Shown: positions 6,033 to 63,244, counted from the stretch's first letter. The stretch: DNA of 64,000 bases from Candidatus Moraniibacteriota bacterium (GCA_016699875.1 CP064989.1:10631-74630); one strand, 5' to 3'. Notes: generated by a model from the sequence alone, not told the origin. Numbers and translations: made by a program.

Positions 6033-6073
6033 GATACGCCTCTTTTTTCAGTTTTCATTAATATCGGATACTA

Positions 6074-10049: not shown

Positions 10050-10095
10050 GGTAATTCTCCTTTCAGTTTGGTTCGTTTGATTTCGCCTACCCACA

Positions 10096-10140
10096 ATGAG
10101 TAGCGCACTAAATACCCAATTTAGACGTCCAATGCGCTAC
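10096..10140. promoter_or_regulatory. Palindromic candidate operator upstream of the GC-rich passenger gene
   Basis: 'gagtagcgcac' ... 'gtgcgctactc'-type inverted repeat (tgagtagcgcact / caatgcgctactcac) in the 5' region of the minus-strand gene. Confidence 0.3.
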
Positions 10141-10357
10141 TCACAGAGTAAGTAAGGAGAATTAACCGCTTCTTTTCTCTCGCTTATCAAAGAGCTATTT
10201 TCGCTAATTTTGGAGGAAGTATACCACCTCAAATTTCGCGTTAAGTGTAGCGTATTGTGTCTATTCTGTCAAGCCCAAACGCTATAATCAAAACTATGCC
10301 CAAAAACCAACAAAAAAAGCCCTTATTTCAAGGACAATTTCATATCTTCTTATTTGG

Positions 10358-10514
10358 TTGTCGGCGCAAACTTTTTCGGAGCGAGGGCGCGGCGGAATTC
10401 CTCCCCCCAACCCCCTCCTTCCGCCGCGCCCGAGCGGATTTCAGAGATTTGGCAAAATTGCGTCAGTAATTTTTCTCAAAATGGGTCCGCGCTACATTCA
10501 GAATATCCCACAAA
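10358..10514. repeat. Right copy of the 157-bp inverted repeat pair. Internal hairpin at about 10385-10431 with a C-rich loop on this strand.
   Basis: Reverse complement of 8248-8404 with one mismatch (gcaatt vs gtaatt). Both ends diverge sharply from the left copy outside the repeat. Confidence 0.85.
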
Positions 10515-10655
10515 ACACAAATTTTGAGGCTTTTCATAGCCTCTTTTTTGTATTGACACCGAGTCTAAAAAGGTGTACAATAATATGTTGTAAGTAAGAG
10601 CTTGCGACTGCCTCGATTCCCGGCATCCAGGGGATTTTCTTTGAAAAAGGAGATG

Positions 10656-11213
10656 GCGATGACGATTCAGTCGATCACGCAAGGCCAAGCAAATCAGAAG
10701 AAGCCCAGATCGCATTACCCGGTGCTTGCTGAAACCAGGCTCCTCAAACCTGTCGGCAAGTCAACTGTTCCAGTCAGGACGAATCCCTTCAATGCAGAAA
10801 AGTTCTACCAGACCGGCACCGGCCTTTACGTCTACGGCATGTTCCCAGGTCGCCTCAACTTGAGTTTTAGGCAGACAGTGGATTCGGCTCCCGAACGTCC
10901 CTACGTGGCTTTGCTCCTCAAGGAAAACGCCTACGACAGGAACATCCGCAAGAAACTGCCGGACATGCACCTGTCCACACTGGAAGACATCGCAGGCCTC
11001 ATTGAAGCACAGCCGGGCGGCAAGCCGGGCTTCCTGCTAAACAACGGCTACGCGAACATCTTCTACGTCGAGGAAAACAGTGAAGTCTTCGTCGTGGATG
11101 TCGGCTGGAAATTCGACCGCTGCGAGTGGGGCGTCGACGGCTGGAAGCTCGGCGAGGCTGGCCGCTGGCGCGTTGACACGCAGGTTCTCTGCCCAAGCAA
11201 CGCGGCGCTCTGA
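10656..11213 (+). CDS. Hypothetical protein (GC-rich, no recognisable domain)
   Basis: Start at 'MAMTIQS' with GGAG 8 nt upstream. About 55% GC. Followed by a hairpin plus T-run. Confidence 0.5.
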   Translation, partial: AMTIQSITQGQANQKKPRSHYPVLAETRLLKPVGKSTVPVRTNPFNAEKFYQTGTGLYVYGMFPGRLNLSFRQTVDSAPERPYVALLLKENAYDRNIRKKLPDMHLSTLEDIAGLIEAQPGGKPGFLLNNGYANIFYVEENSEVFVVDVGWKFDRCEWGVDGWKLGEAGRWRVDTQVLCPSNAAL

Positions 11214-12017: not shown

Positions 12018-13721
12018 TTAAGAATCACTCCTCTCAGTTTCCGAGAGGAGAGCGTCTTTGTTTGCATCTTCAGAGAAAGTGACGGAATCTTTGGCGAAGC
12101 CGCTTGCTTGCATGTCTATGTTGTGTGAATCGGCTCCGGAGATCGTGAGACAGTCTTTGCGGACGAGAGGGCACTTGGTGTTTATGAACGAGAGATTGGC
12201 GCCATCCTTGATATCGAAGACCGTGCCCTTGGTGGGGACGGCAGTAACTCTGTCAAAAGTGATATATTCCGCCTTTTCTATTTGAGCGCCCCATTTCGAG
12301 GAAATTTTGACGTTCTTGAAAACAACGTCAATAATCGGCTGTTCCACGAGCCCGTTGATTTCTATTGAGCGATCGGTTTTCCCGACAGACATATCTTCGA
12401 TGGCGATGTTGCGAAAGAGGGGGATAGCGCCGCGGCCTTTGATAAAGGAGTTTTCATAGGCGGTTGTGAGTTGTACCGCAGCTATGGAGGCGTAGTCGAT
12501 ATTCACTATATTGGCGTGGATATTTTCTACGATTCCGCCGCGGCCCTTTGAGGACTTGATGCGGAACCCATACTGAACCATATTTGCGGAAAGGTTTTCA
12601 ATGAAAATATTGCGCACATCGCCGGACATCTCGCTCCCGATGGCGACAGCGGCATGCGCTTCGAGTATGGAATTATTTCTGATTAAGACATTTTCCGTTG
12701 GTTCTCGAACACGGAGACCGTCACTATTTCTTCCTGACTTGAGGACAATGGCATCATCGCCGGTACTGAAAACGTTATCCTCAATAAGGACATTTATTGA
12801 AGAGTCGAGTGCTACGCCATCGGTGCTTGGTCCGGCACTGGTCTCAATATGAACACCGCGAACAATGATATGTGTACTGTAGAGCGGATGAATCGTCCAC
12901 ATGGGACCGTTTTGTATGGTGACGCCCTCGACGAGTACGCGGTGGCAATTCATAAATTCGATGAATGCCGGGCGAAGAGCGTCTGCGACGGTTCCGAAAA
13001 CGCGCTCGGACACGGGTACATCGTCGTCGCCCATTCGGTAGAGATTTTTGATAGACTTGTTCCAGTCACGCATCGCTTCCCACCAAACGGCGCCTTGTCC
13101 ATCGAGCGTGCCTTCACCCGTAATGGCAACATTGAAAGCATTGGCAGTATAGATAGGAGCGGAATAGTTGTAATATTCAATGCCCTCGAAGCGAGAGAAA
13201 ACGACCGGCAGATACTCTTCAAAGTTCGTGCTGAAAAGAATGGTCGATCCCTTTTCGAGGTGAAGATTGATATTGCTTTTGAGATGTATCGCTCCGGTGA
13301 ACCAGGTGCCTTTGGGAACTTGGACGGTCCCGCCTCCGGTACTGGCGCAGTCCTCTATCGCTTTCCGAAACGCTTCAGTATCGGAGGTGATGCCATCACC
13401 CTTCGCACCGTAGTCGGCGATGGAACAAACTCTGTCCGGAAAACCCGTTTCCTCAATACTGAGCGAGCCACCGGAAAGTGTCTGAAGTGTGGCAATCGAT
13501 GTTGCCAGCGGAATGGATTGCGATATATCCGGGAATTCCCGAGGGATTTCCGGTTCGGTCGGCAGTGTTTCTTCGGGAGAAGCTTCTCTCGTAAAATCCT
13601 GTGATGATGAGAATATTGTTCGTATCCGGTCTCCGAACAGTTTCCAACCTCCAAGGATAACTCCGACAATGCAGAGAGCAAAAAGGAGGAGAAGAATGGC
13701 TGTTCGACGCTGCTGAATCAT
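12018..13721 (-). CDS. Membrane-anchored right-handed beta-helix glycoside hydrolase (GH28 / pectate-lyase-3 family)
   Basis: N-terminal TM helix. 'DYGAKGDGITSDTEAFRKAIEDCASTGGGTVQVPKGTWFTGAIHLKSNINLHL' is the hallmark of the Pectate_lyase_3/GH28 beta-helix. Paralogous to 23682-25217. Confidence 0.75.
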   Translation of the reverse strand: MIQQRRTAILLLLFALCIVGVILGGWKLFGDRIRTIFSSSQDFTREASPEETLPTEPEIPREFPDISQSIPLATSIATLQTLSGGSLSIEETGFPDRVCSIADYGAKGDGITSDTEAFRKAIEDCASTGGGTVQVPKGTWFTGAIHLKSNINLHLEKGSTILFSTNFEEYLPVVFSRFEGIEYYNYSAPIYTANAFNVAITGEGTLDGQGAVWWEAMRDWNKSIKNLYRMGDDDVPVSERVFGTVADALRPAFIEFMNCHRVLVEGVTIQNGPMWTIHPLYSTHIIVRGVHIETSAGPSTDGVALDSSINVLIEDNVFSTGDDAIVLKSGRNSDGLRVREPTENVLIRNNSILEAHAAVAIGSEMSGDVRNIFIENLSANMVQYGFRIKSSKGRGGIVENIHANIVNIDYASIAAVQLTTAYENSFIKGRGAIPLFRNIAIEDMSVGKTDRSIEINGLVEQPIIDVVFKNVKISSKWGAQIEKAEYITFDRVTAVPTKGTVFDIKDGANLSFINTKCPLVRKDCLTISGADSHNIDMQASGFAKDSVTFSEDANKDALLSETERSDS

Positions 13722-13737
13722 GGCGGACGAGAGTTAT

Positions 13738-15597
13738 TTATTCCGAGGATGGGTTTCCTAAAAGGAGTTGCTCGGCGGGAATCACTTTCACAAAATTTTC
13801 CGGGCGATTGCCGATAACGAACGTCTTTGAGGTCTCTTCGGTTGCATATGCTTTTTTGAAATCAATAGGATCGCTGCCGGGGTGAGAAAGCTTTGTGGTT
13901 CTGGATCGACGCCCGGACGAGACTACGACATAGTCAAAATGGAGATCTCGCAAATCTTTCTGACTGAGTCCGGTGCGGCACTCCCCGATAAAGACGGCGC
14001 AGACAGCCCCCTTATCCGCCCATATGGAGATTTCGCGGGGATTTGGCAGGTGGTTGAGAAAGTCGGCGGCTTCCCAACTTCCATCGCCCATATCCTTCAA
14101 ATTGACGAAATAGGGTTCCGGAAGAAGAGATGATGTGTAGGCGAAATAGTACGGCTTGACGGAGAAAAGGCTGATGAATGAAAGAAGTGCCACCGCTGAT
14201 ATTGCGGCAAGGGAGGTGTGGGAATGCTTACGAAGGCGTTCGGACTTGAGAAGAAAAGCAATGCCAAGAGCAGCTAGAATAAAAGCGAAAGGGAAGATGG
14301 TTATTTGGTAGCGTATGGTGGCAACTACGTGATTGACGGTTGACGCGACGTAGTAGAGAAGGATAAAGAGCGTGATAAAGAAAGCTATTTTTGTTTCTTG
14401 TGACGTTATATACTTTTTTGTTGAGCCAAAAACAAGCGCTACAACCAGAGTAATAAGCGCAAACGGCGAAATGCCGAACATAAGACTATATAAATCGGCA
14501 ACGACAGTGTCGGTAAAAATATACAAGCGTGAGCTGTCTCCTCCGGAGCCTTTCGGAGAGGCAAGCGAGGCATCGGTATTGAAGAGACTCATGCCGTTGA
14601 GCGTATTCAGTAAGACGAAAAGAATAGCAGCAATAAAGAATATGAAAACCATTCGAATAAAAAGTATTCGATATCGTGAGAGGGTGTGCAAAATAGCGGC
14701 AGTAAATTTGTTCTTGAATAAAACAGCGTCGAGCGCAATAAGCGCAATGATGCTTGCAAAAAGCGGCCAGGTGCTCTCGAAAGCCTTGCTAAGGAATGTC
14801 CCTTCGAAGACCATTTCCGGATGCTTCCATGTCGCAGGGAAAAGCGCAAAGAATGTCGCCAGAGAGATGCTCACCAAGATGAGGTAATGAAGAGCTGATT
14901 GTCTTATGTAGGTTCGAAGATCCGGTTTTTCCTGAGAGAGGATGTACTCCAAAAAGGGAAGTGCGAAGAAGAATATATAGAGAATATTGGCGACGTATTT
15001 GGTAAGAAGAGAGAGTCCGAGGAGCACTCCGCTTGCATAGAGGTACTTTTTTTCAGCGCTTTTCTGGAAAACAAAATAGCTCAGTGTCGAGAGCGGAAGA
15101 AATATCCAGAGAAGCGAGTCGGGGTTGATAATGAGCGAGATTCCGAGGAGGATCGGTGAGAATCCTATAAAAACAAAGGCGATGAGAGCGGTCGTTTCAT
15201 CGAAGAGTTTTTTAAGAAGAATGAAAAAGAATGGGAGAGAGAGGAGACAAAAAAGAAAAATGGGCAGACGGAAGAAGAAGTTGATATCATTTATGGCTTG
15301 AAACTCTTCATCGGTTTTTACGTTATCGCGCAGACCCTTGTAGGGAAGGGGGTCTATTGTAAGAAGTCCGGCGCCGGAGAGGATTGCGGTCGTGATGCCG
15401 GGTTTGTCATTGATATTGGTGGATCGCCATTTTCCTTCGGCGATCGCCTTCCAAAACTTCGGTGTTCGCTGGTATGTCCAGTAGGGCTCATCAACTGCCG
15501 AATACGACTCGAGACGCGACAGTCCGAGCGCTAAGTTTATGGCAAGTACGGCAACGATAACAAGCGGCGCGAAGCACTTTCGGCAATTGAGTTTCAT
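13738..15597 (-). CDS. GT-C fold membrane glycosyltransferase (GT39/GT83, ArnT/PMT-like) with canonical DE motif
   Basis: More than 10 predicted TM helices. First loop reads 'SAVDEPYWTY'. Has a C-terminal soluble domain. Diverges from the neighbouring paralog at 15722. Confidence 0.7.
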   Translation of the reverse strand: MKLNCRKCFAPLVIVAVLAINLALGLSRLESYSAVDEPYWTYQRTPKFWKAIAEGKWRSTNINDKPGITTAILSGAGLLTIDPLPYKGLRDNVKTDEEFQAINDINFFFRLPIFLFCLLSLPFFFILLKKLFDETTALIAFVFIGFSPILLGISLIINPDSLLWIFLPLSTLSYFVFQKSAEKKYLYASGVLLGLSLLTKYVANILYIFFFALPFLEYILSQEKPDLRTYIRQSALHYLILVSISLATFFALFPATWKHPEMVFEGTFLSKAFESTWPLFASIIALIALDAVLFKNKFTAAILHTLSRYRILFIRMVFIFFIAAILFVLLNTLNGMSLFNTDASLASPKGSGGDSSRLYIFTDTVVADLYSLMFGISPFALITLVVALVFGSTKKYITSQETKIAFFITLFILLYYVASTVNHVVATIRYQITIFPFAFILAALGIAFLLKSERLRKHSHTSLAAISAVALLSFISLFSVKPYYFAYTSSLLPEPYFVNLKDMGDGSWEAADFLNHLPNPREISIWADKGAVCAVFIGECRTGLSQKDLRDLHFDYVVVSSGRRSRTTKLSHPGSDPIDFKKAYATEETSKTFVIGNRPENFVKVIPAEQLLLGNPSSE

Positions 15598-15721
15598 GAA
15601 AAAATCGAGAAATTACACATTTGGCAATACCCGAATGATACAAGAAATTCCCTCGGCTTGCAAAAATTTCAGGCTTTCAGAGCATCTTTCGGCTTTACGA
15701 ACGACGGAGGAGAATGATAGA

Positions 15722-17512
15722 ATGTCTCATATTGCCGTACGCGTTTGTATGGATATTCTGAGACAGTACAGATGGACTCTTGCCTTGCTCGCCATACTTT
15801 TTGGCGCTATTTTCGTGCGGACCTATTCCTTGGACGAGTGGCTCTATTTCAAGATGGACCAAGCGCGAGATGCGCTTCTGATTACCGATATTCTCGAAAA
15901 TGGGCCGAGCAGTCTTCCTCTTCTCGGTCCCCGGGTCGGTGCGGTAGAACTCAAGAGCGGGTTTCTGCGCCTGGGTCCCATATACTACTACTTTCAGTAT
16001 CTTGCCGGCATCTTGTTCCATTCGTCGGAGCCATCGGTTTTTGCGTATCCGGATGTATTCTTCTCAATCGCGGCGATTCCTCTCCTGTACGCGTTTGCCC
16101 GCCTTTACTTTGAGAAACGCCATGCGCTCATGGTAACGGCGATGTACGCTTTCTCGTTTCTGGTGATTCAATACTCTCGCTTTGCATGGAATCCAAACTC
16201 GTTGCAATTTTTCATTCTATTGAGTTTCTATGGACTCCTGCGATTTCTCAATGAGGAGCGATTTTCATCAAAATGCCGCTGGCTAGCTCTTTGGGCTGTT
16301 GGCAGTGCTATCGGTTCACAACTCCATTTTTTCGGATTTTTTAGTTTACTGGGTATTTCAGGACTCCTCGTGCTCTTTCATGGGCGCATTTGGAGGAAAA
16401 CATCCTGGCAGACAATGTTTCACAGAGAATCCCTTCGACAGTTCGCCGTATTCTCAGCTATAGTTGTCGGGATATTCGCTTTTTTCTACACGCCGGTTGT
16501 ATTGAGTGACAGTCTTCGCGGCGGAGAAAATACCAGGAACTTCTTTGAAGCGCTCGGATCGAAAGCGGAAAAGAAACCCCTTGTTGAGAAACTTCAGAAG
16601 ACGGTGACAGAAAATCTGAAGTATTCCTGCCTGTTGCTCACATCGGAATGTTATGCCGGCGACGTCGATTCTCAAGAGAATGTGCCATTTATTGTTCTCA
16701 CGGCCACGATATTTCTTGTCGGAGCGATATTGGCAGTTCGAGGACTGAGAAGGGAGGATAATACTCTCCGCCGTGATTTTCTAGCGCTTGCACTTCTCTG
16801 GATCGGCGTTTTTGTCGTGCTCACGGAACCGGTTTCCTTTCAGCTTCGACCGCGCTTCTACATTGTGATTTTTGCGATCCCGTTTCTTTTTCTGGGATTT
16901 CTCTATGAATTTCTTGAAAGTCGATTTGGCAGGCGAGTGTTTCCCGTATCGATTTTACTGACACTAGGTATCGTAGCGCTCAATGCTCATGGCACATTCC
17001 TGTGGTTTAGAGAACAGGCGAAGGCGCAAACGAAAGCGATCCCGGTAAAGCGGACTCTTATTTTAAAAACCAAGGATGGCGTAACACTCGGGCAACTGCG
17101 AGGTGCGGCGGACTGGGCATATGCTCGCATGAAACCAGGAAATACGCTCTACTATTATGTGAAACCGGAGCATCAGCGCCCGATCAAGTTTCTTTTGCGC
17201 TCGCATGGAGACAGCTTGCTTCGCGTCGAATCGCTTACGATAAATGAGGATCCGACGGCGCAATTTTTCGCAATCACGCCAGCAAAGAACGGCAAGAAAG
17301 ATGTTGCCAAAAAACTGAAGTTGTCCGAAGGAGACTGTATCATTCTTGATTCAAAACAATTCGGTGAGCTTCTGGTATCGGAGATAAACTTCCCAAATCG
17401 TCATATTTCCGATACGTTCAAATATAAAGAGAATAAAGAGGTTGATCGGGAAGGCGAGGGCGACCGAAGTTATTGGAGGGATATTCTCCCGGCACTGTCC
17501 GGGGAAGAGTAA
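15722..17512 (+). CDS. ArnT/PMT-like GT-C membrane glycosyltransferase, paralog 1 of 4 (DQARD variant)
   Basis: Start set to 'MSHIAV' (GGAGGA 13 nt upstream). The longer ORF would overlap the divergent gene. Carries 'DQARDALL', 'LGPIYYYFQ', 'AYPDVFFS' and 'YSRFAWNPN', followed by a C-terminal extracytoplasmic domain. Confidence 0.7.
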   Translation: MSHIAVRVCMDILRQYRWTLALLAILFGAIFVRTYSLDEWLYFKMDQARDALLITDILENGPSSLPLLGPRVGAVELKSGFLRLGPIYYYFQYLAGILFHSSEPSVFAYPDVFFSIAAIPLLYAFARLYFEKRHALMVTAMYAFSFLVIQYSRFAWNPNSLQFFILLSFYGLLRFLNEERFSSKCRWLALWAVGSAIGSQLHFFGFFSLLGISGLLVLFHGRIWRKTSWQTMFHRESLRQFAVFSAIVVGIFAFFYTPVVLSDSLRGGENTRNFFEALGSKAEKKPLVEKLQKTVTENLKYSCLLLTSECYAGDVDSQENVPFIVLTATIFLVGAILAVRGLRREDNTLRRDFLALALLWIGVFVVLTEPVSFQLRPRFYIVIFAIPFLFLGFLYEFLESRFGRRVFPVSILLTLGIVALNAHGTFLWFREQAKAQTKAIPVKRTLILKTKDGVTLGQLRGAADWAYARMKPGNTLYYYVKPEHQRPIKFLLRSHGDSLLRVESLTINEDPTAQFFAITPAKNGKKDVAKKLKLSEGDCIILDSKQFGELLVSEINFPNRHISDTFKYKENKEVDREGEGDRSYWRDILPALSGEE

Positions 17513-17521
17513 ATCGAGAAT

Positions 17522-19174
17522 GTGAAGTGGATGAATTTCAGAGATCGATGTTTTATTATGTTTCGGAAGCCCTCAGCATTTCGAACTGCTTGGATTCTCT
17601 GTGGTATTGTGGTGGTCGGCATATTTATCCGCACATATCACTTTCGGGAGTGGCTTCACTTCGGATCGGATCAGGCTCGTGATGTTATGCTGGTGGGCGA
17701 CGTGGTGCATGGAGTGGAGCCTTGGCCACTGCTTGGTATGGAGGCGGGAAATACCCGGTTTGATCTCGGTCCCGTCTACTACTATTTCCAAATAGCATCG
17801 GCGCATATCTTTGGTGTGCGCCCCGATACGCTGGCCTATCCGGATCTTTTGTTTTCCATTCTGACGATTCCGCTCGCTTTCTTCTTGTTCCGAAAACTCT
17901 TTGAGACGAATCTCTCACTTGCACTTACCGGGCTTTACTCGATTTCTTTTTACATAGTCGAGTATTCCCGCTTTGCATGGAATCCGAATATGATCCCATT
18001 TTTTGTCGGGCTTTTCCTGCTTTCTCTCACAGAGTTCATGGAAGCGGACGAGAAGACCAAGTGGCGATGGATATTCGCACTCGGCATAGCGATCGGTATC
18101 GGAGTGCAGCTGCATACGATATTACTCTTCTTGTTCCCGGCAATGCTGCTTGGCATGTTCCTTATCTTTTCGAAAAAGAATATTGGGGCCATAGTGCGTC
18201 TCGTCAGCATTGTCGCCATAGCTTTCGCACTGAATATTCCTCAAGCTATCAGTGAAGTTCAGACTCATGGAAAAAATACCAAACTCTTCTTCAAGGCGCT
18301 CACTGATCGTTCGGGAAGTGGCAGCTCGCAATTTGCAGAAAGTCTCAAAACAGATATCCTCTGTCATGCACAGGCAAATTCACATATGCTTTCGGCACTT
18401 GGACATCACGGTAATTGCAATTTTCTCTCCCTCATTGACCATCCGGAGAGATTCTCAGGCGGTTTCTCTTTACTGCTTGCATATGGCAGCATCATGCTCA
18501 GTGTCATCTTTTCTGCGATAGGATATGGACTGCTAGCATTCCTTGTTTTCACTGAGGCGGATCCGAAGCGACGGAAATTTCTTCTCGTTATTTTCATCTA
18601 TACGGGACTTTCATTTCTCATTCTTTTTTCAGTTATCATAGGAGCGCCGCTTCGGTATTTTATTCATGCGACGTTCATTCCTTTTATTCTGCTTGGATTG
18701 ATTCTTGTGCGGATTCGGAAGTATTCTTTTCCTTTTGCTCGAACAGTTGTTTGGGCAGTTATTGCCACGTCAGCACTGCTCAATGTCCGAGCGATTGGCA
18801 TTGAGGCGTCTCAACTTGCATCGGGGACGCGTGGAAATCCGGGATTTGTCGTGCTTGGTGAAGCGGAACGCATGGTAGACTATATGAGAGAGCGTTCCGG
18901 ATCATGGACGGAGGCGAATCTTGCCGGAGGGACGGCTTACTTTTCAACGTATTATAAACCGCTCAAATATATTGCCGCACAGAAAGGTCTTGATATTCAT
19001 CTGGCCAAGCGAAAGCGGCCTCCGGTTTCGGAAATCCCTTATTTCTTCGTCTACCGGCCCTCTGATCGAAGAGACCCGTCTTTTGCCAAAGGATATGATG
19101 TGCTTGATTATCGAGATTTCGGGCAGATAGGCATATATCACTTGCAAAGCGTGAAGTACCGAGTGCAAGAATGA
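17522..19174 (+). CDS. ArnT/PMT-like GT-C membrane glycosyltransferase, paralog 2 of 4
   Basis: 'DQARDVML', 'LGPVYYYFQ', 'LAYPDLLFS' and 'YSRFAWNPN'. Multi-TM N-terminal domain plus a C-terminal soluble domain. Confidence 0.7.
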   Translation: MKWMNFRDRCFIMFRKPSAFRTAWILCGIVVVGIFIRTYHFREWLHFGSDQARDVMLVGDVVHGVEPWPLLGMEAGNTRFDLGPVYYYFQIASAHIFGVRPDTLAYPDLLFSILTIPLAFFLFRKLFETNLSLALTGLYSISFYIVEYSRFAWNPNMIPFFVGLFLLSLTEFMEADEKTKWRWIFALGIAIGIGVQLHTILLFLFPAMLLGMFLIFSKKNIGAIVRLVSIVAIAFALNIPQAISEVQTHGKNTKLFFKALTDRSGSGSSQFAESLKTDILCHAQANSHMLSALGHHGNCNFLSLIDHPERFSGGFSLLLAYGSIMLSVIFSAIGYGLLAFLVFTEADPKRRKFLLVIFIYTGLSFLILFSVIIGAPLRYFIHATFIPFILLGLILVRIRKYSFPFARTVVWAVIATSALLNVRAIGIEASQLASGTRGNPGFVVLGEAERMVDYMRERSGSWTEANLAGGTAYFSTYYKPLKYIAAQKGLDIHLAKRKRPPVSEIPYFFVYRPSDRRDPSFAKGYDVLDYRDFGQIGIYHLQSVKYRVQE

Positions 19175-19274
19175 GCGGTTATTGTCATCGCTGCTGATAC
19201 AGAGAGTTGAATTTGATATTCGCCAAACGGTACATGGGTAACGCAGGTCATTCACCACGAGCCTTTCTCTGACT

Positions 19275-20852
19275 ATGAATTCTTTTGTCAGTACATTTCG
19301 GAAAATTTCCCCATCCGTATTCGTCCTCGCGGCGATTTTCATCATCGGAATATTTTTGCGCACGTTTTATTTTCATGATTGGCTTCGATTCAATGCCGAT
19401 CAGTCAAGGGATGCCGGTATTGTGAGCGATGTTGTTGAAGGGAAAACGCCGGCTCCGCTCCTCGGTCCGAAAGCTGGCGGAACAGAGTTTCGTCTCGGGT
19501 CGGCATTTTATATTTTTCAAATTGCTTCTGCGAGTCTCTTCGGAAATCGGCCTGACACAATGGCGTATCCTGACCTCATAAGTTCTCTTCTTGCCATCCC
19601 GCTTCTCTACGCTTTCCTGCGTCTGTATTTCGAGAGAAAGACTGCGCTCTTCCTGACAGCTCTCTTTGCGGTTTCTTTCTATGGAGTGAAGTATTCTCGC
19701 TTTGCGTGGAATCCGAATTCATTGCCTTTCTGGACGCTGCTCTTTTTCTTTTCTTTGCATCGTCTTCTGGCATTTCCGGAAAAGGCCGGGGTGGTATGGA
19801 GCATCATTTTGGGAGTCGCGCTGGGTGTCGGTGTTCAATTGCACACGTTGACGCTCATATTGTTTCCTATAGCGGCCGCACTTACATTCGGATATCTCGC
19901 ATTCTTACGAAGAGAACGTCTCGGAAGAGTATTCCTGGTAGTCTCAACAGTGGCTGTTCTCCTGAATGCCGGACAGATACTGAGTGAGATTCGAACGGGC
20001 GGAGAAAATCTGTCGGCATTCTTTTCCGGGATTGATGCAAAAGAAGAGAAAGGATCCGGTTTTTCAAAGAACATCGTAAAAGACTCGGTTTGTTTCGTTC
20101 AGGGAAGCGTGTATATCCTAACTTCGCACGAGATTTCCGACACTTGCGATACGAAATCTATCAGAAATGGCTCTAATGGAATATTTTTTGCCGGAGGCAT
20201 TCTTCTTTTCTTTGGCGGGATAGCACTTGCTTTTCGGGCATTTTATCGTGAGCGAGAGGCGTCAAAACGATATTTTCTTATAATAAACATGGCGTTTCTT
20301 TTACTTTCATTTCTTTTGTTCATTCCGCTTGCCAATGAAATATCAATGCGATTCTTCCTCGTGACCGTATTTCTGCCCTTTATATTGCTCGGTCTCTGGT
20401 TTAACCTCTTTGTCGAGGTCTTTCCGCGTTGGGCATTTGTCGGAATAGCGGCTATTTCATCGATATTGATACTCGCCAATGTATATGCGGTACAGCAATC
20501 CTTTTCCGAATATGCCTCATACTTGGACAAACATTCCGAAGCGGGGATGGACAATGTCTTGCTTCGTGAAGTCGAAGAAGCTGCGGATTTTATCGTCAGC
20601 CGTTCGGGAGATTCGAATACAGTCTCGCTTGGAGGAGATTCGAGATATCTTTTCAAGGCATTGAAATCTATTCGGTACTTTACGGAAAAGCAGGGAATCG
20701 ATATTATCCAACAGAAGAATGGAAAAACAGATACTTTTCCTCAATTTATTGTTGACAACACAAAGCATGCCGATGATTTCCTCAAAGAAAACCCCGATGT
20801 GATAGACTGGAAAACAATCGGACGGTTTACTCTTTTCCAAGTACGTAGATGA
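19275..20852 (+). CDS. ArnT/PMT-like GT-C membrane glycosyltransferase, paralog 3 of 4
   Basis: 'DQSRDAGI', 'MAYPDLISS' and 'YSRFAWNPN'. Confidence 0.7.
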   Translation: MNSFVSTFRKISPSVFVLAAIFIIGIFLRTFYFHDWLRFNADQSRDAGIVSDVVEGKTPAPLLGPKAGGTEFRLGSAFYIFQIASASLFGNRPDTMAYPDLISSLLAIPLLYAFLRLYFERKTALFLTALFAVSFYGVKYSRFAWNPNSLPFWTLLFFFSLHRLLAFPEKAGVVWSIILGVALGVGVQLHTLTLILFPIAAALTFGYLAFLRRERLGRVFLVVSTVAVLLNAGQILSEIRTGGENLSAFFSGIDAKEEKGSGFSKNIVKDSVCFVQGSVYILTSHEISDTCDTKSIRNGSNGIFFAGGILLFFGGIALAFRAFYREREASKRYFLIINMAFLLLSFLLFIPLANEISMRFFLVTVFLPFILLGLWFNLFVEVFPRWAFVGIAAISSILILANVYAVQQSFSEYASYLDKHSEAGMDNVLLREVEEAADFIVSRSGDSNTVSLGGDSRYLFKALKSIRYFTEKQGIDIIQQKNGKTDTFPQFIVDNTKHADDFLKENPDVIDWKTIGRFTLFQVRR

Positions 20853-20903
20853 CGAAATTCCAAGCGTCAAGCGTATTGTCTCTATCTCATTTAGCGAGCA
20901 GTT

Positions 20904-21602
20904 ATGAAGAAGCAGTCAAACATGATCTTTGCCGCAGATGATTTCGGCATTAGTCAAAAAGCGAATGAGCGAATCTTGAAGCTTGCCGAGGCGGGAGTGC
21001 TTGATCGTGTAGCCGTTATGACAAAGGGAGGTGCAACCAAAGAATCTTTGGATCGTCTCGCGAGATCGGCCGTAAAAATCGATCTTCATGCCGAGCTTCG
21101 CGATGATATCGACCCCAATAGAAAACTTGCTGCGGGTGCATTCCGAAGAACTCTCACATTTATGAAGAACCTCTTTTTCGGAGAGAACCGACCGGCTCAG
21201 GTTGCTGCTCGCTGGGAAGCGCAGATTCTCGATTTCCATTCCATGTTTGGAAAGTATCCCGACGGATTGAACTCGCATGAACACACTCATTTCTTCCCGC
21301 CATACTTCAAGCATGCTCTCTATTTAGCGCGGAAATATCACATCTCGTTTATTCGATTTGGGAGAGAATCATTTCCGGGAGGCGCAGCGGTTTCATATAT
21401 TCTCAATACGCTTCGGCTGGTAGATAAGAGGTCATTCTCTCGAGCGAACATTGCCTCATCGGATATAATGGTCAGTTTCGATTGGATAAGATCACTCGAT
21501 GTTCTCAAAGGATATCCGAAAGAAAAATCCATTGAAATATTGTTTCACCCCGAGCGTGATGAAGAGATGATTTTTTTGGAAGAAAATTTTCTTGAGAAGT
21601 GA
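20904..21602 (+). CDS. YdjC/ChbG-family carbohydrate deacetylase
   Basis: 'IFAADDFGIS' near the N-terminus, and 'LNSHEHTHFFP' as the His-rich metal-site motif of the YdjC family. Confidence 0.75.
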   Translation: MKKQSNMIFAADDFGISQKANERILKLAEAGVLDRVAVMTKGGATKESLDRLARSAVKIDLHAELRDDIDPNRKLAAGAFRRTLTFMKNLFFGENRPAQVAARWEAQILDFHSMFGKYPDGLNSHEHTHFFPPYFKHALYLARKYHISFIRFGRESFPGGAAVSYILNTLRLVDKRSFSRANIASSDIMVSFDWIRSLDVLKGYPKEKSIEILFHPERDEEMIFLEENFLEK

Positions 21603-21652
21603 AAATTTTCGCAATGATGAGAAGTTGAACGAGTTATTTTTTTGAAAGTGAT

Positions 21653-23272
21653 ATGAGTGTCTGGAAAATATGGCAGGAAAAAATACGAAGCAGAAAGCGT
21701 ATCCAATATATACTCCTCGCCAGTATTGTTGTGCTTGGCCTGTTTCTTCGAACTTTCCACTTTCAATCATGGATGGAGTTCTCTCCGGATCAGGCGCGCG
21801 ATGCAGCACTTATCGATGATGTTCTCTCCGGAGAGAAGTCACTGCCGTTTCTCGGTGCCGAATCCGGAAACACAGGATTCAAGCTTGGCCCGATAGCGTA
21901 TCACTGGCAGTATCTTTCCAGCCTGCTTTTCGGGTCCGAACCGTACAATTTGGCATATCCGGATCTCCTCTTTTCGATATTTGCCATCCCTTTGTTTTTC
22001 TTGTTGATGCGGAAGTACTTTGCCGCTGAAATATCGCTCGTGCTTACTTTCTTCATGAGCTCATCGTTTTTTCTTGTGAAATACGCTCGCTTCGCTTGGA
22101 ATCCGAATGCCGCCCCATTTTTCTCAGCTCTCTTTCTCTTTTCGCTTCTTGAGGTGCTTGATCCCAAGAGGAAGGACAAGCTTCTCTGGCCGGCACTTTT
22201 GGGTATTTCAATGGGAATTGCCATTCAATTGCATACGCTCTTCATATTTATTCTTCCAGCTGTTGCCGGTGTCGGGTTTCTTATTTGGATCAAACGCAGA
22301 CTCTTCTCATGGCGAGGACTCGTACTGTTTGTTGCATGCTTCCTGGTTATGAATTGGGCGCAGATATATCGCGATGCAAATCACAACTATTCGAATGTCA
22401 ACCGCTTCCTCAAAGCTATTACAAAGACGTCATCAGGAGATGGCGAAAACATGTTGCTGAGAAATATGGATGAAGCAACTGCTTGTGAGGTGCAATCAAG
22501 CGCCTACATTGTTTCGTCATGGGGAAACCTTGGGAAATGCGAAGTCTGGGAATCTGTCTTGCGTCCACATGATACGGAGTTGCGAATAACTTTTATTCTT
22601 GGATTTATCCTGGTCTTTGGCGGGTATGTACTGCTCGGTTATTACTGGCAGCGGGAAGATAATGATAGACGGCGAGACTTTCTTTTCTTTGCGGGACTTT
22701 ACGCTCTGGTTGCTTTCATAATGAGTGTTCCCATAATCACACAAGTTTCCACGCGTTACTATATTACTTCTTTTTTCATTCCGTTTGTTCTCCTCGGGCT
22801 ATGGATGAAATTCCTTGGAGGGCAATCGGGAAGAATCAGTGTGATATTCAAGATACTACTGCTCGCCTTGATAATCATTCTTGTCGCGGGCAATACACGT
22901 TCAATTGTCTCATGGTCGGAAAAGCTCGCTCACGGTTCGGCAAGTGACTCGAAAACCGTATTTTATACCGAGGTACGAGATATGATGAGTTATATGGAAG
23001 AATCCTTGCCTCAACAAAGTATCGGCCTCCTTGGAAACAATGACTATATGTCTCGATTCTTGAAACCACTCAATTACTTCGCCGTGCGCGACAGCATCGA
23101 ATTGCTTGACCTTTCCAATAAACACCGGGATCCGGAGGGAAGATTCTTCTACATAGGCGGCGTCATCCCCGAATCAGAACTGCTTACACAATCAACATAC
23201 AAAGGGTACATCATTGAGAGTTATCGATTGTTTGGTCAGGTTATGATATTGATGCTTCGAACAAAAGAATGA
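21653..23272 (+). CDS. ArnT/PMT-like GT-C membrane glycosyltransferase, paralog 4 of 4
   Basis: 'DQARDAAL', 'LGPIAYHWQ', 'LAYPDLLFS' and 'YARFAWNPN'. Confidence 0.7.
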   Translation: MSVWKIWQEKIRSRKRIQYILLASIVVLGLFLRTFHFQSWMEFSPDQARDAALIDDVLSGEKSLPFLGAESGNTGFKLGPIAYHWQYLSSLLFGSEPYNLAYPDLLFSIFAIPLFFLLMRKYFAAEISLVLTFFMSSSFFLVKYARFAWNPNAAPFFSALFLFSLLEVLDPKRKDKLLWPALLGISMGIAIQLHTLFIFILPAVAGVGFLIWIKRRLFSWRGLVLFVACFLVMNWAQIYRDANHNYSNVNRFLKAITKTSSGDGENMLLRNMDEATACEVQSSAYIVSSWGNLGKCEVWESVLRPHDTELRITFILGFILVFGGYVLLGYYWQREDNDRRRDFLFFAGLYALVAFIMSVPIITQVSTRYYITSFFIPFVLLGLWMKFLGGQSGRISVIFKILLLALIIILVAGNTRSIVSWSEKLAHGSASDSKTVFYTEVRDMMSYMEESLPQQSIGLLGNNDYMSRFLKPLNYFAVRDSIELLDLSNKHRDPEGRFFYIGGVIPESELLTQSTYKGYIIESYRLFGQVMILMLRTKE

Positions 23273-23329
23273 TATTTTAGGATGTTCCACCATGGAAGCG
23301 CACGTGCTTTCCCGACTAAAAACGGAATG

Positions 23330-23650
23330 TGTCTCCGGTATCGCTCGCTTTTTCGTTTCAATGCGAACAGCACTCATTCTAGTGGGGATTACATGCGTTG
23401 GAATATGGAATTCCATATCGGACCGATTACACACTACTTCTCGTTTCTTTCGGGGTTAATCCTCGGTTGGACGCCGGCAGCGCTGGCGTACCCGGATCTT
23501 TTGTTTTCCGTGCTCACCATTCCATTGATGTATGTACTCATTGCGAAGATGTTTGGCAGAAACATGGCATTGGTCTTTCCAACGGCAATATCCGGATTCA
23601 TTGTAATAACCGAAATTAATGATCAAGAAATCATAAATCGCATTGCAAGT
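23330..23650 (+). pseudogene. Decayed internal fragment of a further GT-C paralog
   Basis: 'MEFHIGPITHYFSFLSGLILGWTPAALAYPDLLFSVLTIPLMYVLIAKMF' aligns to the 'LGPVYYYFQ...LAYPDLLFSILTIPLAFFLF' block of the paralogs. It lacks the N-terminal DQARD region and everything after the equivalent of TM4, and is only 136 codons in ORF context. Confidence 0.5.
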
Positions 23651-23681
23651 GGACGCGTCAGTATGTTTCAAATAAGGGAGT

Positions 23682-25217
23682 ATGGCAAATAAAAAACAAC
23701 TTCTCACTGTAGTGGCACTCTCCATCTCTGCACTCTTCCTAATTGGCGGAGCACTTTTCTTCAAGATCAATTTCATCGCTCACAAAAAGAATGACACGCT
23801 TTCGAAAGAAGCTGCGCGTGAGACAGTGAAGGGTGTTGATAGCAATACTCTGACAATCCCACAAACACTCTCTCTTTCGGAGCCTGTATTCCCCGATAGA
23901 GTATGCAATATCATGGATTTCGGGGCAATCGGAGATGGACAAACCATGAATACCGATGCTTTCCGAGAAGCTATTGCGGAATGCTCTCGACTCGGTGGCG
24001 GAAAGATAGTTGTTCCGAAAGGGGAATGGTTGACTGGTCCGATTGTTTTGCAGAACAATATATGGCTTTTCCTCGAACAGGATTCTGAGATCCTTTTTAG
24101 TGCTCAGAAAAACGATTACCTTCCTGTTGTCCGTTCGCGATTCGAAGGTGTTGAATACTACAATTATTCCCCGCCCCTCTCCGCGAGAAACGCGAAGAAC
24201 ATTGCAATTACCGGAAAGGGGACGCTGAACGGGCAAGCAGAGAAGTCATGGTGGACATCGGTGGATGATCCGAGAGTGGCGGCCTCTATGATGGAACTGT
24301 ACACAATGGGGCAAAACGGCACCCCTATTAACGATCGGGTCTTTGGAGGAGAGAAGGGGCTACGGCCGGCATTTATAGAGTTTTTCGAGTGTCAGACGGT
24401 GCTTATTGAGGGCGTTACTTTTGTAAACGGCCCCATGTGGACGATTCACCCGCTCTATAGCGATACCCTCACTATTCGCGATGTTTCTATTCGAACGCAT
24501 GATGGAAGAAATACGGACGGAATCGTCGTAGATTCTTCGCAAAACGTCGTCATCGAAGGCTCAAAATTTTCTACAGGAGACGATGCTATTGCCATAAAAT
24601 CAGGGAGAGACAACGATGGGATGCGCGTCGGGAGGCCATCAAAGAATATCCTCATAAAGAACTGTGCCGTTGAAGAGGCTCATGCAGCCATAGCTATTGG
24701 CAGCGAGGTTTCCGGCGGGATACAAGATGTTTTTGTAGATACGATGCATGTGAAAGAAGCTGATTTCGGCATTCGTATGAAATCGAGTCCCGGGAGAGGT
24801 GCTTCTGTCCATACGATCCGAATTCAAAATATGAACATTGAAAGTGCGCGGATTGCCGCAATCGAACTCGACCAGATGACTGGCGAAGCCGTATCAGTCG
24901 GGACGGATCTCACAGACTTTAGCGATATTCGTATTGCAAATATACGGTGCGATTGGACCAGAAAGCCCTTTCTACTGAATGGAGCCGCTGAAAACCCTCC
25001 GTACGACATAGAACTGAACAATCTTTCACTCTCCGCAAGCGGAACAGCGCTCCTGAAAAATGTTCAACAAATACTCCTTAAAGATATCACTTTCGCATCC
25101 TCAAGAAAGGGGAAGGAAGCCGGTCTTGAGGTGATTGACAGCAAAGATATCGTCATTGACCAAATAAACCTTCCGAAAGAAAGGATGCTCTGTGCAAAGG
25201 GATGTACTTACCGGTAG
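23682..25217 (+). CDS. Membrane-anchored beta-helix glycoside hydrolase (GH28 / pectate-lyase-3 family), paralog of 12018-13721
   Basis: N-terminal TM helix. 'DFGAIGDGQTMNTDAFREAIAECSRLGGGKIVVPKGEWLTGPIVLQNNIWLFL' is collinear with the first copy along its whole length. Confidence 0.75.
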   Translation: MANKKQLLTVVALSISALFLIGGALFFKINFIAHKKNDTLSKEAARETVKGVDSNTLTIPQTLSLSEPVFPDRVCNIMDFGAIGDGQTMNTDAFREAIAECSRLGGGKIVVPKGEWLTGPIVLQNNIWLFLEQDSEILFSAQKNDYLPVVRSRFEGVEYYNYSPPLSARNAKNIAITGKGTLNGQAEKSWWTSVDDPRVAASMMELYTMGQNGTPINDRVFGGEKGLRPAFIEFFECQTVLIEGVTFVNGPMWTIHPLYSDTLTIRDVSIRTHDGRNTDGIVVDSSQNVVIEGSKFSTGDDAIAIKSGRDNDGMRVGRPSKNILIKNCAVEEAHAAIAIGSEVSGGIQDVFVDTMHVKEADFGIRMKSSPGRGASVHTIRIQNMNIESARIAAIELDQMTGEAVSVGTDLTDFSDIRIANIRCDWTRKPFLLNGAAENPPYDIELNNLSLSASGTALLKNVQQILLKDITFASSRKGKEAGLEVIDSKDIVIDQINLPKERMLCAKGCTYR

Positions 25218-25290
25218 AAAATCGGGTAGATTCCTCAAGTGTAGCAGATGGTGGAATGAGCTATAGATGAAGAATGTCCCCACATGAGAA

Positions 25291-25322
25291 CTAAAAAACG
25301 AGGAATGAGCAGGGCATTCCTC
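25291..25322 (-). terminator. Rho-independent terminator for the minus-strand GT2 gene
   Basis: gaggaatg-agcaggg-cattcctc hairpin. The minus strand follows it with GTTTTTTAG. Confidence 0.5.
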
Positions 25323-25347
25323 TAGTGGCAAGCAATTACGAATACGG

Positions 25348-26286
25348 CTAAGATTTCCTCCGAATGATATATAAGGGACGACCGAGAACTTCCCGGTGAA
25401 TATTCTCAATATAAAGTGAGAGTAACCCAATAGACATAAGGAGAATGCCTACAAGAAAGACAATGAAGATGGCAAGATTTTCGGCATCAGAGAATGTCGA
25501 GGCGAAATGCCAGCGAAAGAAATATTTTCCAAGCAATATGTAGAAACCGGCAATGGAAGAAGTAGCCGTTATGAAAATGCCCAGATAACCAGCCAACCGA
25601 AGCGGGAGGAGACTCAGTGAGACAAAGCTGTTGAAAGCAAGTCGAGCCAATTTCCAAAAATTGTAACTCGCCGTCCCATGGAGTCGCTCATGAGCATCGA
25701 AGAATATATAGGTACGCTTAAATCCCATCCAATCGATAAGTCCGCGCGTCATTCGATTGACTTCGGTAAGTCGATTGAATTCATTGACCACCATCCGATC
25801 AAGAAGTCGAAAATCAGTTGAGTTTGGCACAACCTTTGTCTCAACAATTTTGTTGAGTATGGCGTAAAAAATGACGGATCCAACTTTCTTTATCCATGAA
25901 TCGCTCCGGCTTTTGTTCCGAATGCCCACTACAACTTCAAAACCGCGCTCCCACTGATTGACAAACTCAGGGATCAATTCGATTGGATGCTGAAGATCCG
26001 CATCTATAAGAATACATGCATTCCCGGAAGCATGGTGAAGTCCGGCAGTTGTCGCTATTTCTTTACCGAAATTTCTCGAGAAATCAATATATCGTATACG
26101 CGAGTCACGTGAAGACGCTTGTTTCAGAACCTCCAGCGTCTCATCGGTGCTTCCATCATTGACGAAGAGAATTTCGTAGGAGTATGCTTCACCAAGCGAC
26201 TCAAGTATTGGTTGCGCCCGCTCACAGAAAACAGGGATATTCTCCGCTTCATTGTGTGCAGGGACAATTATGGAGATAACCTTCAT
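25348..26286 (-). CDS. GT2 polyprenyl-phosphate glycosyltransferase (DPM1/GtrB/ArnC-like, lipid-linked sugar donor synthase)
   Basis: 'MKVISIIVPAHNEAENI', 'VNDGSTDET' and 'ILIDADLQHP' form a GT-A catalytic domain. Two C-terminal TM helices are typical of Dpm1/GtrB/ArnC. The longer upstream extension has no support. Confidence 0.8.
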   Translation of the reverse strand: MKVISIIVPAHNEAENIPVFCERAQPILESLGEAYSYEILFVNDGSTDETLEVLKQASSRDSRIRYIDFSRNFGKEIATTAGLHHASGNACILIDADLQHPIELIPEFVNQWERGFEVVVGIRNKSRSDSWIKKVGSVIFYAILNKIVETKVVPNSTDFRLLDRMVVNEFNRLTEVNRMTRGLIDWMGFKRTYIFFDAHERLHGTASYNFWKLARLAFNSFVSLSLLPLRLAGYLGIFITATSSIAGFYILLGKYFFRWHFASTFSDAENLAIFIVFLVGILLMSIGLLSLYIENIHREVLGRPLYIIRRKS

Positions 26287-31719: not shown

Positions 31720-31900
31720 GAAAATACAGAACATCGAACAGAAAGTCGATCGGATGTTTGCAAGCGTCGAGAAGCTCCGGCGATATTTTCTTTGGACACT
31801 GATCATTACGCTGGTCACGGTGGTTCTCCCGATTATCGCCCTTATGTTCGCCATACCTTGGGCGTTTGGGATCCTTTCGAACGCCTACAATATTTCATAA
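31700..31900 (+). CDS. Small hypothetical membrane protein
   Basis: 'MEPELFEKIQNIEQKVDRMFASVEKLRRYFLWTLIITLVTVVLPIIALMF'. Overlaps the MFS stop by about 20 nt. Confidence 0.3.
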   Translation: MEPELFEKIQNIEQKVDRMFASVEKLRRYFLWTLIITLVTVVLPIIALMFAIPWAFGILSNAYNIS

Positions 31901-31908
31901 TCGTTTCT

Positions 31909-34059: not shown

Positions 34060-34072
34060 ATTTCTACCACCT

Positions 34073-36385: not shown

Positions 36386-36406
36386 AACTGTGACTCGAGC
36401 ACCTCT

Positions 36407-61880: not shown

Positions 61881-61900
61881 TTCTGTCACACCATGGCACT

Positions 61901-63046: not shown

Positions 63047-63244
63047 TGCATTCTCTCCTTCGCAAGGATTGCATATTTCATACTTACAAATTGTCAATGA
63101 GCAGAAAGTTCAGTATGTACAATGATAGCTTTCCTGTCAAGTGGAAATGCGTCTGTGTTTGACAGTAGAGGATATATATGGTTAATTCCATACGTATACA
63201 TCTTCTAGCTCATTCACAACACGTCAATCGGAGCGATCGATACC

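Follow-up and report, generated by a model that had tools for sequence, protein, structure and literature searches.

The 64,000-nucleotide (64-kb) stretch of a Candidatus Moraniibacteriota bacterium genome analysed here (GCA_016699875.1, CP064989.1:10631-74630; hereafter the window) holds, at positions 12018-26286, a locus in which five membrane glycosyltransferases (GTs) of the GT-C fold lie together with two membrane-anchored glycoside hydrolases (GHs) of family GH28, a polyprenyl-phosphate glycosyltransferase of family GT2, a putative YdjC-family deacetylase and the remnant of a further GT-C gene. The GT-Cs comprise one enzyme with a DE motif (GTC0) and four tandem paralogs (GTC1 to GTC4), and the two hydrolases are termed GH28a and GH28b. 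A general role in glycosylation at the outer face of the membrane, dependent on lipid-linked sugars, is very probable. The reading that we favour, with a probability of roughly 0.55, is that the locus is the core of an envelope glycosylation island found throughout the Moraniibacteriota, through which a surface glycopolymer is built or decorated stepwise while GH28 trims the product. What is directly seen are the folds and families of the encoded proteins, their intact catalytic motifs, the synteny of the locus and a natural gene fusion.

Pairing of the DE-type GT-C with GH28

GTC0, in which the first-pass annotation had reported the canonical DE motif, does carry it within the sequence AVDEPYW (residues 34-40); V35-W40 (VDEPYW) are invariant in 48 family members, with D36 and E37 placed directly after the first transmembrane helix (TM1). 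The protein matched Pfam PMT_2 with 47 bits and PMT with 29 bits, and its AlphaFold2 model (predicted local distance difference test, pLDDT, 85; predicted template modelling score, pTM, 0.90) retrieved GT-C enzymes only in Foldseek, namely STT3 and AglB (E 1.7e-6 for these two), ALG12, ArnT and Pmt4. The C-terminal domain of the family is marked by a KDMGDGS motif and two invariant cysteines (C533 and C540), which may pair as an extracytoplasmic disulfide. Orthologs of GTC0 are present at 73 of 74 related loci collected by scanning GTDB species genomes with a GTC0 profile, many of which are cut by contig ends. A gene for a 461-aa membrane-associated DsbA/thioredoxin-like protein is found upstream of the locus (5833-7218, + strand) and is syntenic in one of the closest relatives, L003.

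Both hydrolases matched Pfam Glyco_hydro_28 (GH28a, E 1e-27; GH28b, E 5.5e-32), share 48% identity (E 1e-130) and possess a single N-terminal hydrophobic anchor each. The defining features of family GH28 are present, including the right-handed beta-helix, the NTD/DD/H/RIK motifs, three catalytic aspartates and the carboxylate-binding arginine and lysine. In GH28a, D301, D322, D323 and K389 are invariant in all 124 homologs, 116 of which also have H356 and R387, and the NTD, GDD, H and R-x-K motifs of GH28b are likewise intact. The NCBIfam alpha-D-galacturonidase model (BT4155) scored 323 bits for GH28a and 300 bits for GH28b, under its cut-off of 800 bits. The solved structure closest to GH28a is the exo-polygalacturonase of Thermotoga maritima (3JUR, E 7e-87), and a rhamnogalacturonan II (RG-II) galacturonidase-like structure of Bacteroides thetaiotaomicron (5OLP) is also near.

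The two GH28 genes had been described as membrane-anchored paralogs that flank the GT-C array; paralogy and anchoring held, whereas their position appears to be more than flanking. GH28a shares the strand of GTC0 and follows it after a gap of 16 bp, and across the related loci GH28 occurs at 30, directly adjoining a DE-type GT-C at 20. Three loci (L005, L006 and L079) contain two pairs of DE-type GT-C and GH28 each, and in L079 the ortholog of GH28b (P0320) follows the second DE-type GT-C. Further, two proteins of 1060 aa, from two organisms and independent datasets (P0223 from JGI and P0211 from Logan; 78% identical to each other), consist of a GTC0 ortholog continued at its C-terminus by a GH28 catalytic domain that has no membrane anchor of its own. 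This puts the GH28 domain on the extracytoplasmic side, together with the C-terminal domain of the GT-C. The two genes adjoin, have been duplicated jointly and are naturally fused, all of which argues for GH28 as the partner of the DE-type GT-C in one functional unit. No description of a GT-C paired with or fused to an intact GH28 was found in the searched literature.

The classical role of GH28 enzymes is that of a catabolic pectinase, and those of Patescibacteria have been listed among catabolic carbohydrate-active enzymes (CAZymes; PMC9868632). The two proteins could, on that precedent, be unrelated to the GT-C cluster beside them and use galacturonans from a host or the environment as a carbon source, as would suit their intact catalytic machinery and their closest characterised relatives, exo-polygalacturonases and the RG-II alpha-galacturonidase of pectin degraders. 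Such a role is nevertheless very unlikely for genes that adjoin a DE-type GT-C on the same strand at 20 loci, were duplicated jointly with it and are fused to its C-terminus in two organisms, and whose products are membrane-anchored rather than secreted; no genes for uronate uptake or catabolism were seen in the window or the examined flanks.

GH28b differs from GH28a in its neighbour. The slot between GTC4 and GH28b measures 410 bp in the window, compared with a full DE-type GT-C of 634 aa (40% identical to GTC0) in L079 and L005, and is occupied by a remnant open reading frame (ORF) that had been read as a decayed fifth copy of the tandem genes. The fragment is indeed tandem-type, with 47-51% identity to GTC2 and GTC4 over 57 aa and up to 53-56% identity to tandem-type genes of relatives (E 4e-21, ~55-70 residues; blastp and tblastn), but the slot itself is that of a second full DE-type GT-C in sister genomes. 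A DNA repeat (D2, 23450-23523) falls within the remnant, and the catalytic DQxRD position of the tandem family reads NSTHS. Descent of the remnant from the second DE-type GT-C of L079 and L005 was considered and rejected, as tblastn against 23000-23900 gave E 1.4 with that gene and E 1e-21 with tandem-type genes. A second DE-type GT-C has left no trace at 23000-23900 by tblastn, and GH28b therefore appears 'orphaned', its partner having been lost in this genome.

The tandem GT-C array, the wider island and the lipid-sugar enzymes

All five full-length GT-C genes exceed the Pfam PMT_2 gathering cut-off, GTC1 also matching Pfam PMT, and the four tandem genes are full-length paralogs as first annotated, sharing 26-36% pairwise identity over nearly their full length (E 1e-45 to 1e-99). 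Within this range, GTC1 is 26-34% identical to GTC2-4, and GTC2 is 35% identical to GTC3 and 36% to GTC4. Repeats in the DNA coincide with the coding motifs YSRFAWNPN and AYPDLLFS in the four paralogs and the remnant. In place of the DE motif the tandem (Ct) family has D38, Q39 and D42 (DQxRD; DQARD in GTC1) just after TM1, invariant in 63 sequences, and YPD, WNPN, QLH and R366 are further conserved positions. The AlphaFold2 model of GTC2, built on the 63-sequence alignment (pLDDT 92; pTM 0.92), has ArnT as its top Foldseek match (E 1.4e-8), followed by STT3, AglB, PglB, ALG12, AftA, DPY19 and PMT. As with GTC0, GT-C enzymes alone were retrieved, which bears out the fold proposed for these two proteins. 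The features of the GT-C_A class are present, with an N-terminal module of seven transmembrane helices, a long first extracytoplasmic loop and acidic residues after TM1.

The first-pass annotation had grouped six genes of the locus as related and had given each paralog a C-terminal domain of its own. The C-terminal domains of GTC1-4 are instead homologous to one another, and GTC0 aligns with GTC1-4 only distantly (hhalign probability 60%, E 8e-5, 87 columns); the six genes are therefore related at the level of a superfamily, and GTC0 is not a close paralog of the others. Based on the models, the GTC0 and Ct families are predicted to share the GT-C fold and to be roughly equidistant from every characterised subfamily. 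Profile hidden Markov models (HMMs) of both families found no solved GT-C by sequence in the PDB, and no PMT chain at E<=1. Membership of GT83 is not indicated by sequence, with no match to the NCBIfam ArnT model and none to ArnT by either profile, and the one NCBIfam subfamily to match the GT-Cs, Agl23, did so weakly and far under its cut-off. Among 1.84 billion proteins, the Ct- and C0-type families have 578 representatives at E<=1e-30. One Ct-type representative of 811 aa (P0492) carries a calcineurin-like metallophosphoesterase as a C-terminal fusion, and a stand-alone Metallophos gene is situated 5.5 kb downstream of the locus (31792-33024, + strand), as one is downstream in L079; these occurrences may hint at a phosphodiester-containing acceptor.

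Orthologs of GTC1 (72-79% identical) occupy the same position in L003 and L005, where orthologs of GTC3 are 65-68% identical, and those of GTC4 are 64-73% identical. As the one-to-one orthologs of GTC1-4 are collinear in the relatives and share 64-79% identity, against 26-36% among the paralogs, the paralogs are ancient and each individually retained. A recent amplification of the array was rejected on the same comparison.

The 74 loci, annotated with HMMs built from the window and one relative, belong almost entirely to metagenome-assembled genomes (MAGs) of Moraniibacteriota or Paceibacteria. Many MAG records that contain the island (L005, L006, L020, L025, L032, L038 and others) are titled 'uncultured Bdellovibrionales', which looks like mislabelled taxonomy. 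Tandem-type GT-Cs are present at 57 loci and GTC1 orthologs at 39, and the islands possess a median of four and a maximum of seven GT-C genes (counted at the 33 loci with flanks of 8 kb or more in either direction). In the layout that recurs, a GTC1 ortholog opens a tandem run of Ct-type genes. A DE-type GT-C is transcribed divergently from this run, in many cases with GH28 and a further Ct gene behind it, and the opposite strand then encodes LPG_synthase_TM (43 loci), a GT4 (42 loci), a UDP-glucose 6-dehydrogenase (Ugd; 28 loci) and an ArnC-like GT2 (26 loci). This block, which belongs to the ancestral island, adjoins the GT-C genes at 26-43 loci, depending on the gene; its dehydrogenase matched the TuaD model with 538 bits, and its ArnC-like GT2 scored 181 bits over the full length. 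In L010 (15389-21561) the same block also holds ORFs of 152 aa and 317 aa without a family match. The closest relatives (L003, L005 and L079, the last a complete genome of 1.11 Mb, CP064974.1) share the order GTC1-GTC2-GTC3-YdjC-GTC4...GT2 with the window.

The GT2 of the locus had been proposed as a Dpm1/GtrB/ArnC-like polyprenyl-phosphate glycosyltransferase, and profile searches returned the signatures of that class, with a GT-A domain bearing DxD, C-terminal hydrophobic segments and full-length alignment to GtrB and ArnC. Residues 4-308 align to residues 28-326 of Synechocystis GtrB (5EKP, E 7e-70), the C-terminal transmembrane helices included, and weaker matches were obtained to ArnC (residues 8-311, E 4e-38) and to DPMS (E 5.5e-15). 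Pfam Glycos_transf_2 matched with E 1e-30. The NCBIfam models for PgfS (232 bits, cut-off 500) and ArnC (151 bits, cut-off 529) both matched under their cut-offs. GT2 orthologs are located at the matching position in L003 and L079.

The deacetylase reported inside the array is likewise a YdjC-family protein (Pfam YdjC, E 1.8e-28; 100.6 bits against a cut-off of 29.7 bits), with the motifs FAADDFG and NSHEHTH, no hydrophobic segment, matches under cut-off to the NCBIfam chitin disaccharide deacetylase and HpnK models, and PDB matches to 2I5I and 7VI8. Its place between GTC3 and GTC4 is kept in L003, L005 and L079. LgmA, LgmC and LgmB of Bordetella look comparable to FlmF2, NaxD and FlmK of Francisella, with LgmC probably in the place of NaxD. 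The lgmA-C genes are needed for the glucosamine modification in Bordetella (PMC4993483), and NaxD, a member of the YdjC superfamily, deacetylates undecaprenyl-phosphate-GalNAc before its transfer to lipid A (PMC11279074). The trio of GT2, YdjC and GT-C has a direct precedent in the NaxD system, and the conserved place of YdjC in the GT-C array lends contextual support to a putative NaxD-type activity on polyprenyl-phosphate-linked N-acetylhexosamine.

The Pfam PMT and PMT_2 matches and the PMT-like DE motif of GTC0 raise the possibility of protein O-glycosylation, in which PMT-like GT-Cs would place a lipid-carried monosaccharide on serine or threonine residues of surface proteins (pili, S-layer or large adhesins), with one set of proteins for each paralog, a reading near to the first-pass suggestion of several acceptors modified with one donor. 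PgfS, the best NCBIfam match of the GT2, belongs to the Pgf adhesin glycosylation machinery of Streptococcus mutans and is in keeping with such a role. We consider it improbable, however, for a set of enzymes of which only GTC0 has the loop-1 DE motif of the PMT type, and for which Pfam PMT covers profile positions ~74-228 of 245, short of a full-length GT39 match, with no match to PMT_4TMC or MIR and with no PMT reached by either family profile. Nor would simple O-monoglycosylation be expected to involve Ugd, a GT4, another lipid-sugar synthase or a galacturonidase tethered or fused to its partner.

Gene content of the locus and its surroundings

The host belongs to the candidate phyla radiation (CPR, or Patescibacteria) and has a genome of ~1.09 Mb; a protein at NCBI from a Candidatus Moraniibacteriota MAG shows 100% identity to GTC2. 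The ORF list and profile searches placed ten ORFs at the coordinates first annotated (Table 1), with the start of GTC1 as the exception: a start at 15539 would overlap GTC0 and was rejected in favour of 15749, which agrees with the ortholog N-termini, or 15722, an ATG preceded by a GGAGGA Shine-Dalgarno sequence. Together the ten genes sum to 13.7 kb, or 21% of the window (initially put at about 20%), and the island of ~14 kb makes up ~1.3% of the genome. Promoter-like hexamers are present on both strands between GTC0 and GTC1, at a frequency no higher than chance.

Table 1. Features of the locus, in window coordinates (TM, transmembrane segment)
Feature	Position	Strand	Description
GH28a	12018-13721	-	membrane-anchored (N-terminal TM) GH28 beta-helix glycosidase, 567 aa
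GTC0	13738-15597	-	DE-motif GT-C membrane glycosyltransferase, 619 aa; C-terminal extracytoplasmic domain with two conserved Cys
Divergent intergenic region GTC0/GTC1	15598-15748	.	124-151 bp; presumed bidirectional promoter region
GTC1	15749-17512 (start alternatively 15722)	+	first gene of the tandem array, most divergent paralog
GTC2	17558-19174	+	tandem GT-C paralog, annotated product P0001, 538 aa
GTC3	19275-20852	+	tandem GT-C paralog, 525 aa
YdjC	20904-21602	+	putative YdjC-family carbohydrate deacetylase, 232 aa, TM-free (cytoplasmic)
GTC4	21653-23272	+	tandem GT-C paralog, 539 aa
Remnant ORF	23282-23692	+	136 codons; residues ~41-110 are a tandem-type GT-C fragment (end of loop 1 and TM2)
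GH28b	23682-25217	+	second membrane-anchored GH28, 511 aa, GH28a paralog
GT2	25348-26286	-	GtrB/ArnC-type polyprenyl-phosphate glycosyltransferase, 312 aa, convergent with the array

Elsewhere the window contains housekeeping genes and genes for peptidoglycan synthesis (MurB, MurG, FtsW, a Mur ligase and a YkuD transpeptidase), and an Rfam scan of the locus returned a tRNA-Val as the sole match. Upstream, a 1721-aa protein (356-5521, - strand) ends in a Glycoamylase domain and matches the GT2 family Glyco_trans_2_3 weakly in its centre; it resembles cyclic beta-1,2-glucan synthase and has an ortholog in the same relative position in L003. Between tRNA-Ala/RibD_C and the locus is an IS1595-family transposase (8490-9170, + strand; DDE_Tnp_IS1595, E 1.6e-26), followed by ORFs at 9336-11213 without a family match, and synteny with L003 breaks at the transposase region. 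Downstream, an ABC (ATP-binding cassette) ATPase, a fused ABC-2 permease/ABC_transp_aux protein (GldG-like, 817 aa) and a DUF4340 protein (33133-37036, + strand) form an uncharacterised transport system. At 61047-63097 (- strand), a PgaC/chitin-synthase-type GT2 (398 aa) overlaps a Polysacc_deac_1 deacetylase (290 aa) by 19 bp, a separate second exopolysaccharide synthase-deacetylase pair.

Proposed pathway, known systems and significance

In established GT-C systems (ArnC/ArnT, GtrB/GtrC and Ppm1/Pmt) a polyprenyl-phosphate sugar made by a GT2 on the cytoplasmic face is flipped to the outside, where a GT-C transfers its sugar. By the same logic, the GtrB-like GT2 of the locus would place a sugar derived from a nucleotide sugar on polyprenyl phosphate at the cytoplasmic face. 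In the case of an N-acetylhexosamine, YdjC, as a soluble enzyme, would deacetylate the sugar in its lipid-linked form. The lipid-linked sugars would then be flipped, a step for which LPG_synthase_TM is a candidate in the relatives, and each of the five GT-Cs would glycosylate its own specific site on an acceptor outside the membrane. A surface glycopolymer (a lipoglycan or wall polysaccharide) would in this way be built or decorated, as by the GT-C sets of the Corynebacteriales, and the membrane-tethered, exo-galacturonidase-like GH28 paired with the DE-type GT-C would trim or edit the product.

Editing of the product by GH28 would imply alpha-linked galacturonic (uronic) acid in the glycan. 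The carboxylate-binding residues of GH28, together with the Ugd and the ArnC-like GT2 of the relatives, point to a uronic acid in the product, most simply alpha-linked galacturonic acid (GalA), and the sugars of the donor lipids would probably include a uronic acid and perhaps a deacetylated hexosamine. The most specific form of the proposal is that the Moraniibacteriota make a so-far-undescribed uronic-acid surface lipoglycan or wall polymer, wholly at the outer membrane face, by means of up to seven clade-specific GT-Cs, the DE-type one forming a functional unit, in some cases one polypeptide, with a GH28 'editing' galacturonidase; this is put forward tentatively, and we would sooner expect some part of it to fail than the whole to hold.

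The nearest counterpart for such an assembly line is found in the Corynebacteriales, where lipomannan, lipoarabinomannan and arabinogalactan are made from Ppm1-derived or decaprenylphosphoryl-arabinose (DPA) donors by the GT-Cs MptA/B/C, PimE, AftA-D and EmbA-C, after a cytoplasmic GT4 has started the lipid anchor. The likeness lies in many GT-C paralogs, one linkage each, and in polyprenyl-phosphate-monosaccharide donors, and the fold matches include AftA, AftB, AftD, EmbA and PimE. Unlike those systems, the locus has no sequence-level relation to them, is found in another phylum without an outer mycomembrane, has its genes clustered in one island and includes a partnered or fused glycoside hydrolase, and its product is one that we infer. 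For the hydrolase, the exopolysaccharide systems of BcsZ, PslG, PelA, PgaB and AlgL offer a parallel, in which a product-specific glycan-cleaving enzyme is encoded, and acts, beside the synthase at the outer face. The pairing of GH28 with a GT-C looks analogous, although the synthases of those systems are processive GT2 or GT4 enzymes and not GT-Cs, and no GT-C-glycosidase fusion is known in systems of this type.

Three-component systems decorate an existing polymer or lipid with a GT2, a flippase and a GT-C, as in GtrABC, CsbB/YfhO, ArnC/ArnT, FlmF2/NaxD/FlmK and RgtE/RgtA-D. The locus could function similarly, each GT-C adding one substituent (a cationic hexosamine or anionic GalA) to a wall polymer or lipid and so altering surface charge. 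Its GT2, YdjC and GT-C reproduce the enzyme set of FlmF2/NaxD/FlmK, with an ArnC/GtrB-type GT2 that makes polyprenyl-phosphate-N-acetylhexosamine, a YdjC-superfamily deacetylase and an ArnT-like outer-face GT-C, and ArnT is the top structural match of GTC2. In Rhizobium leguminosarum a single polyprenyl-phosphate-GalA synthase, RgtE, reportedly feeds the ArnT-like RgtA/B/C/D, which add GalA to several sites of the lipopolysaccharide (LPS), and thus one GT2 serves several GT-C paralogs at the outer face. The GtrB/GtrA/GtrC and CsbB/GtcA/YfhO systems share with the locus the sequence of lipid-phosphate-sugar synthesis, flipping and GT-C transfer, and it is GtrB (5EKP) that the GT2 most resembles.

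Decoration alone is an unlikely account, and the locus differs from these systems in several respects. No LPS or lipid A pathway is in view, and the peptidoglycan genes of the window are of the Gram-positive type only, so that the acceptor must differ from the lipid A of Francisella and from the LPS core and lipid A of Rhizobium. Five GT-Cs stand against the one of Francisella, these GT-Cs have no sequence-level match to ArnT and fall outside the GtrC and YfhO families, and the substrate of YdjC is putative. The Rhizobium system is not known to include GH28, YdjC or GT4, and GalA is suggested at the locus solely by the GH28 partner and the relatives' Ugd. Multiple GT-Cs, GH28 and YdjC are additions to the Gtr and CsbB schemes, and none of the scanned ORFs of the window is a GtrA-family flippase. 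More generally, up to seven GT-Cs per island, a GT4 and a dedicated hydrolase exceed known decoration systems, and a hydrolase partner is not known from any described three-component system of this kind. The number, age and fixed order of the GT-Cs, together with the GT4 and candidate flippase of the relatives, therefore favour an assembly line over decoration with single substituents.

Apart from the classical role of GH28, several observations weigh against stepwise assembly with GH28 editing. Neither the window nor the flanks of L003 and L079 contain the LPG_synthase_TM/GT4/Ugd/ArnC-like block, so that a supply of uronic acid in this genome is putative, and a UDP-glucuronic acid 4-epimerase was not seen at any of the 74 loci. 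YdjC is found at only five of the loci and a GtrB-like GT2 at eight, which limits their linkage to the island to some lineages, and a GtrB-type GT2 could load plain glucose, leaving YdjC without its proposed substrate. Promoter and terminator scans performed at chance level and thus lend no support to an operon structure. Further, we infer the identities of the sugars, the acceptor, the flippase, the product and the action of GH28 on that product.

Two broader claims of the first-pass annotation are also affected. The locus had been called a complete module, which does not follow from a window with no flippase candidate (none of GtrA, ArnE/F and LPG_synthase_TM was found among its scanned ORFs) and without the block carried by the relatives. 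The modification of several acceptors with one donor remains one option, but the ancient, ordered paralogs and the evidence for two lipid-sugar synthases in the wider family fit the assembly of a polymer at least equally well.

Each of the enzyme classes and the three-component logic are already known. What distinguishes the locus is the clade-specific GT-C families, the conservation of the island in CPR genomes of ~1 Mb and the DE-type GT-C paired with or fused to GH28. The composition of five GT-Cs, two GH28s, YdjC and GT2, which had not been recognised as a described system, was likewise absent from the searched literature, and among the papers listed on CPR or Patescibacteria with GT-C, GT39 or ArnT, and on Parcubacteria mannosyltransferases and cell envelopes, there was no description of such a system.

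If the proposal is true, the island would encode a GT-C-glycosidase machine without a described counterpart, and GH28 genes that have been counted as pectin catabolism in the CPR would be genes of envelope biogenesis, which metagenomic CAZyme surveys may misread as pectin degradation. The conservation of the island across the Moraniibacteriota, with individually retained GT-Cs, argues for an important and structurally complex surface glycoconjugate. The CPR represent a large share of bacterial diversity with an envelope chemistry that is almost unknown, and as their cells live attached to other cells, surface glycans are likely to be central to their lifestyle.

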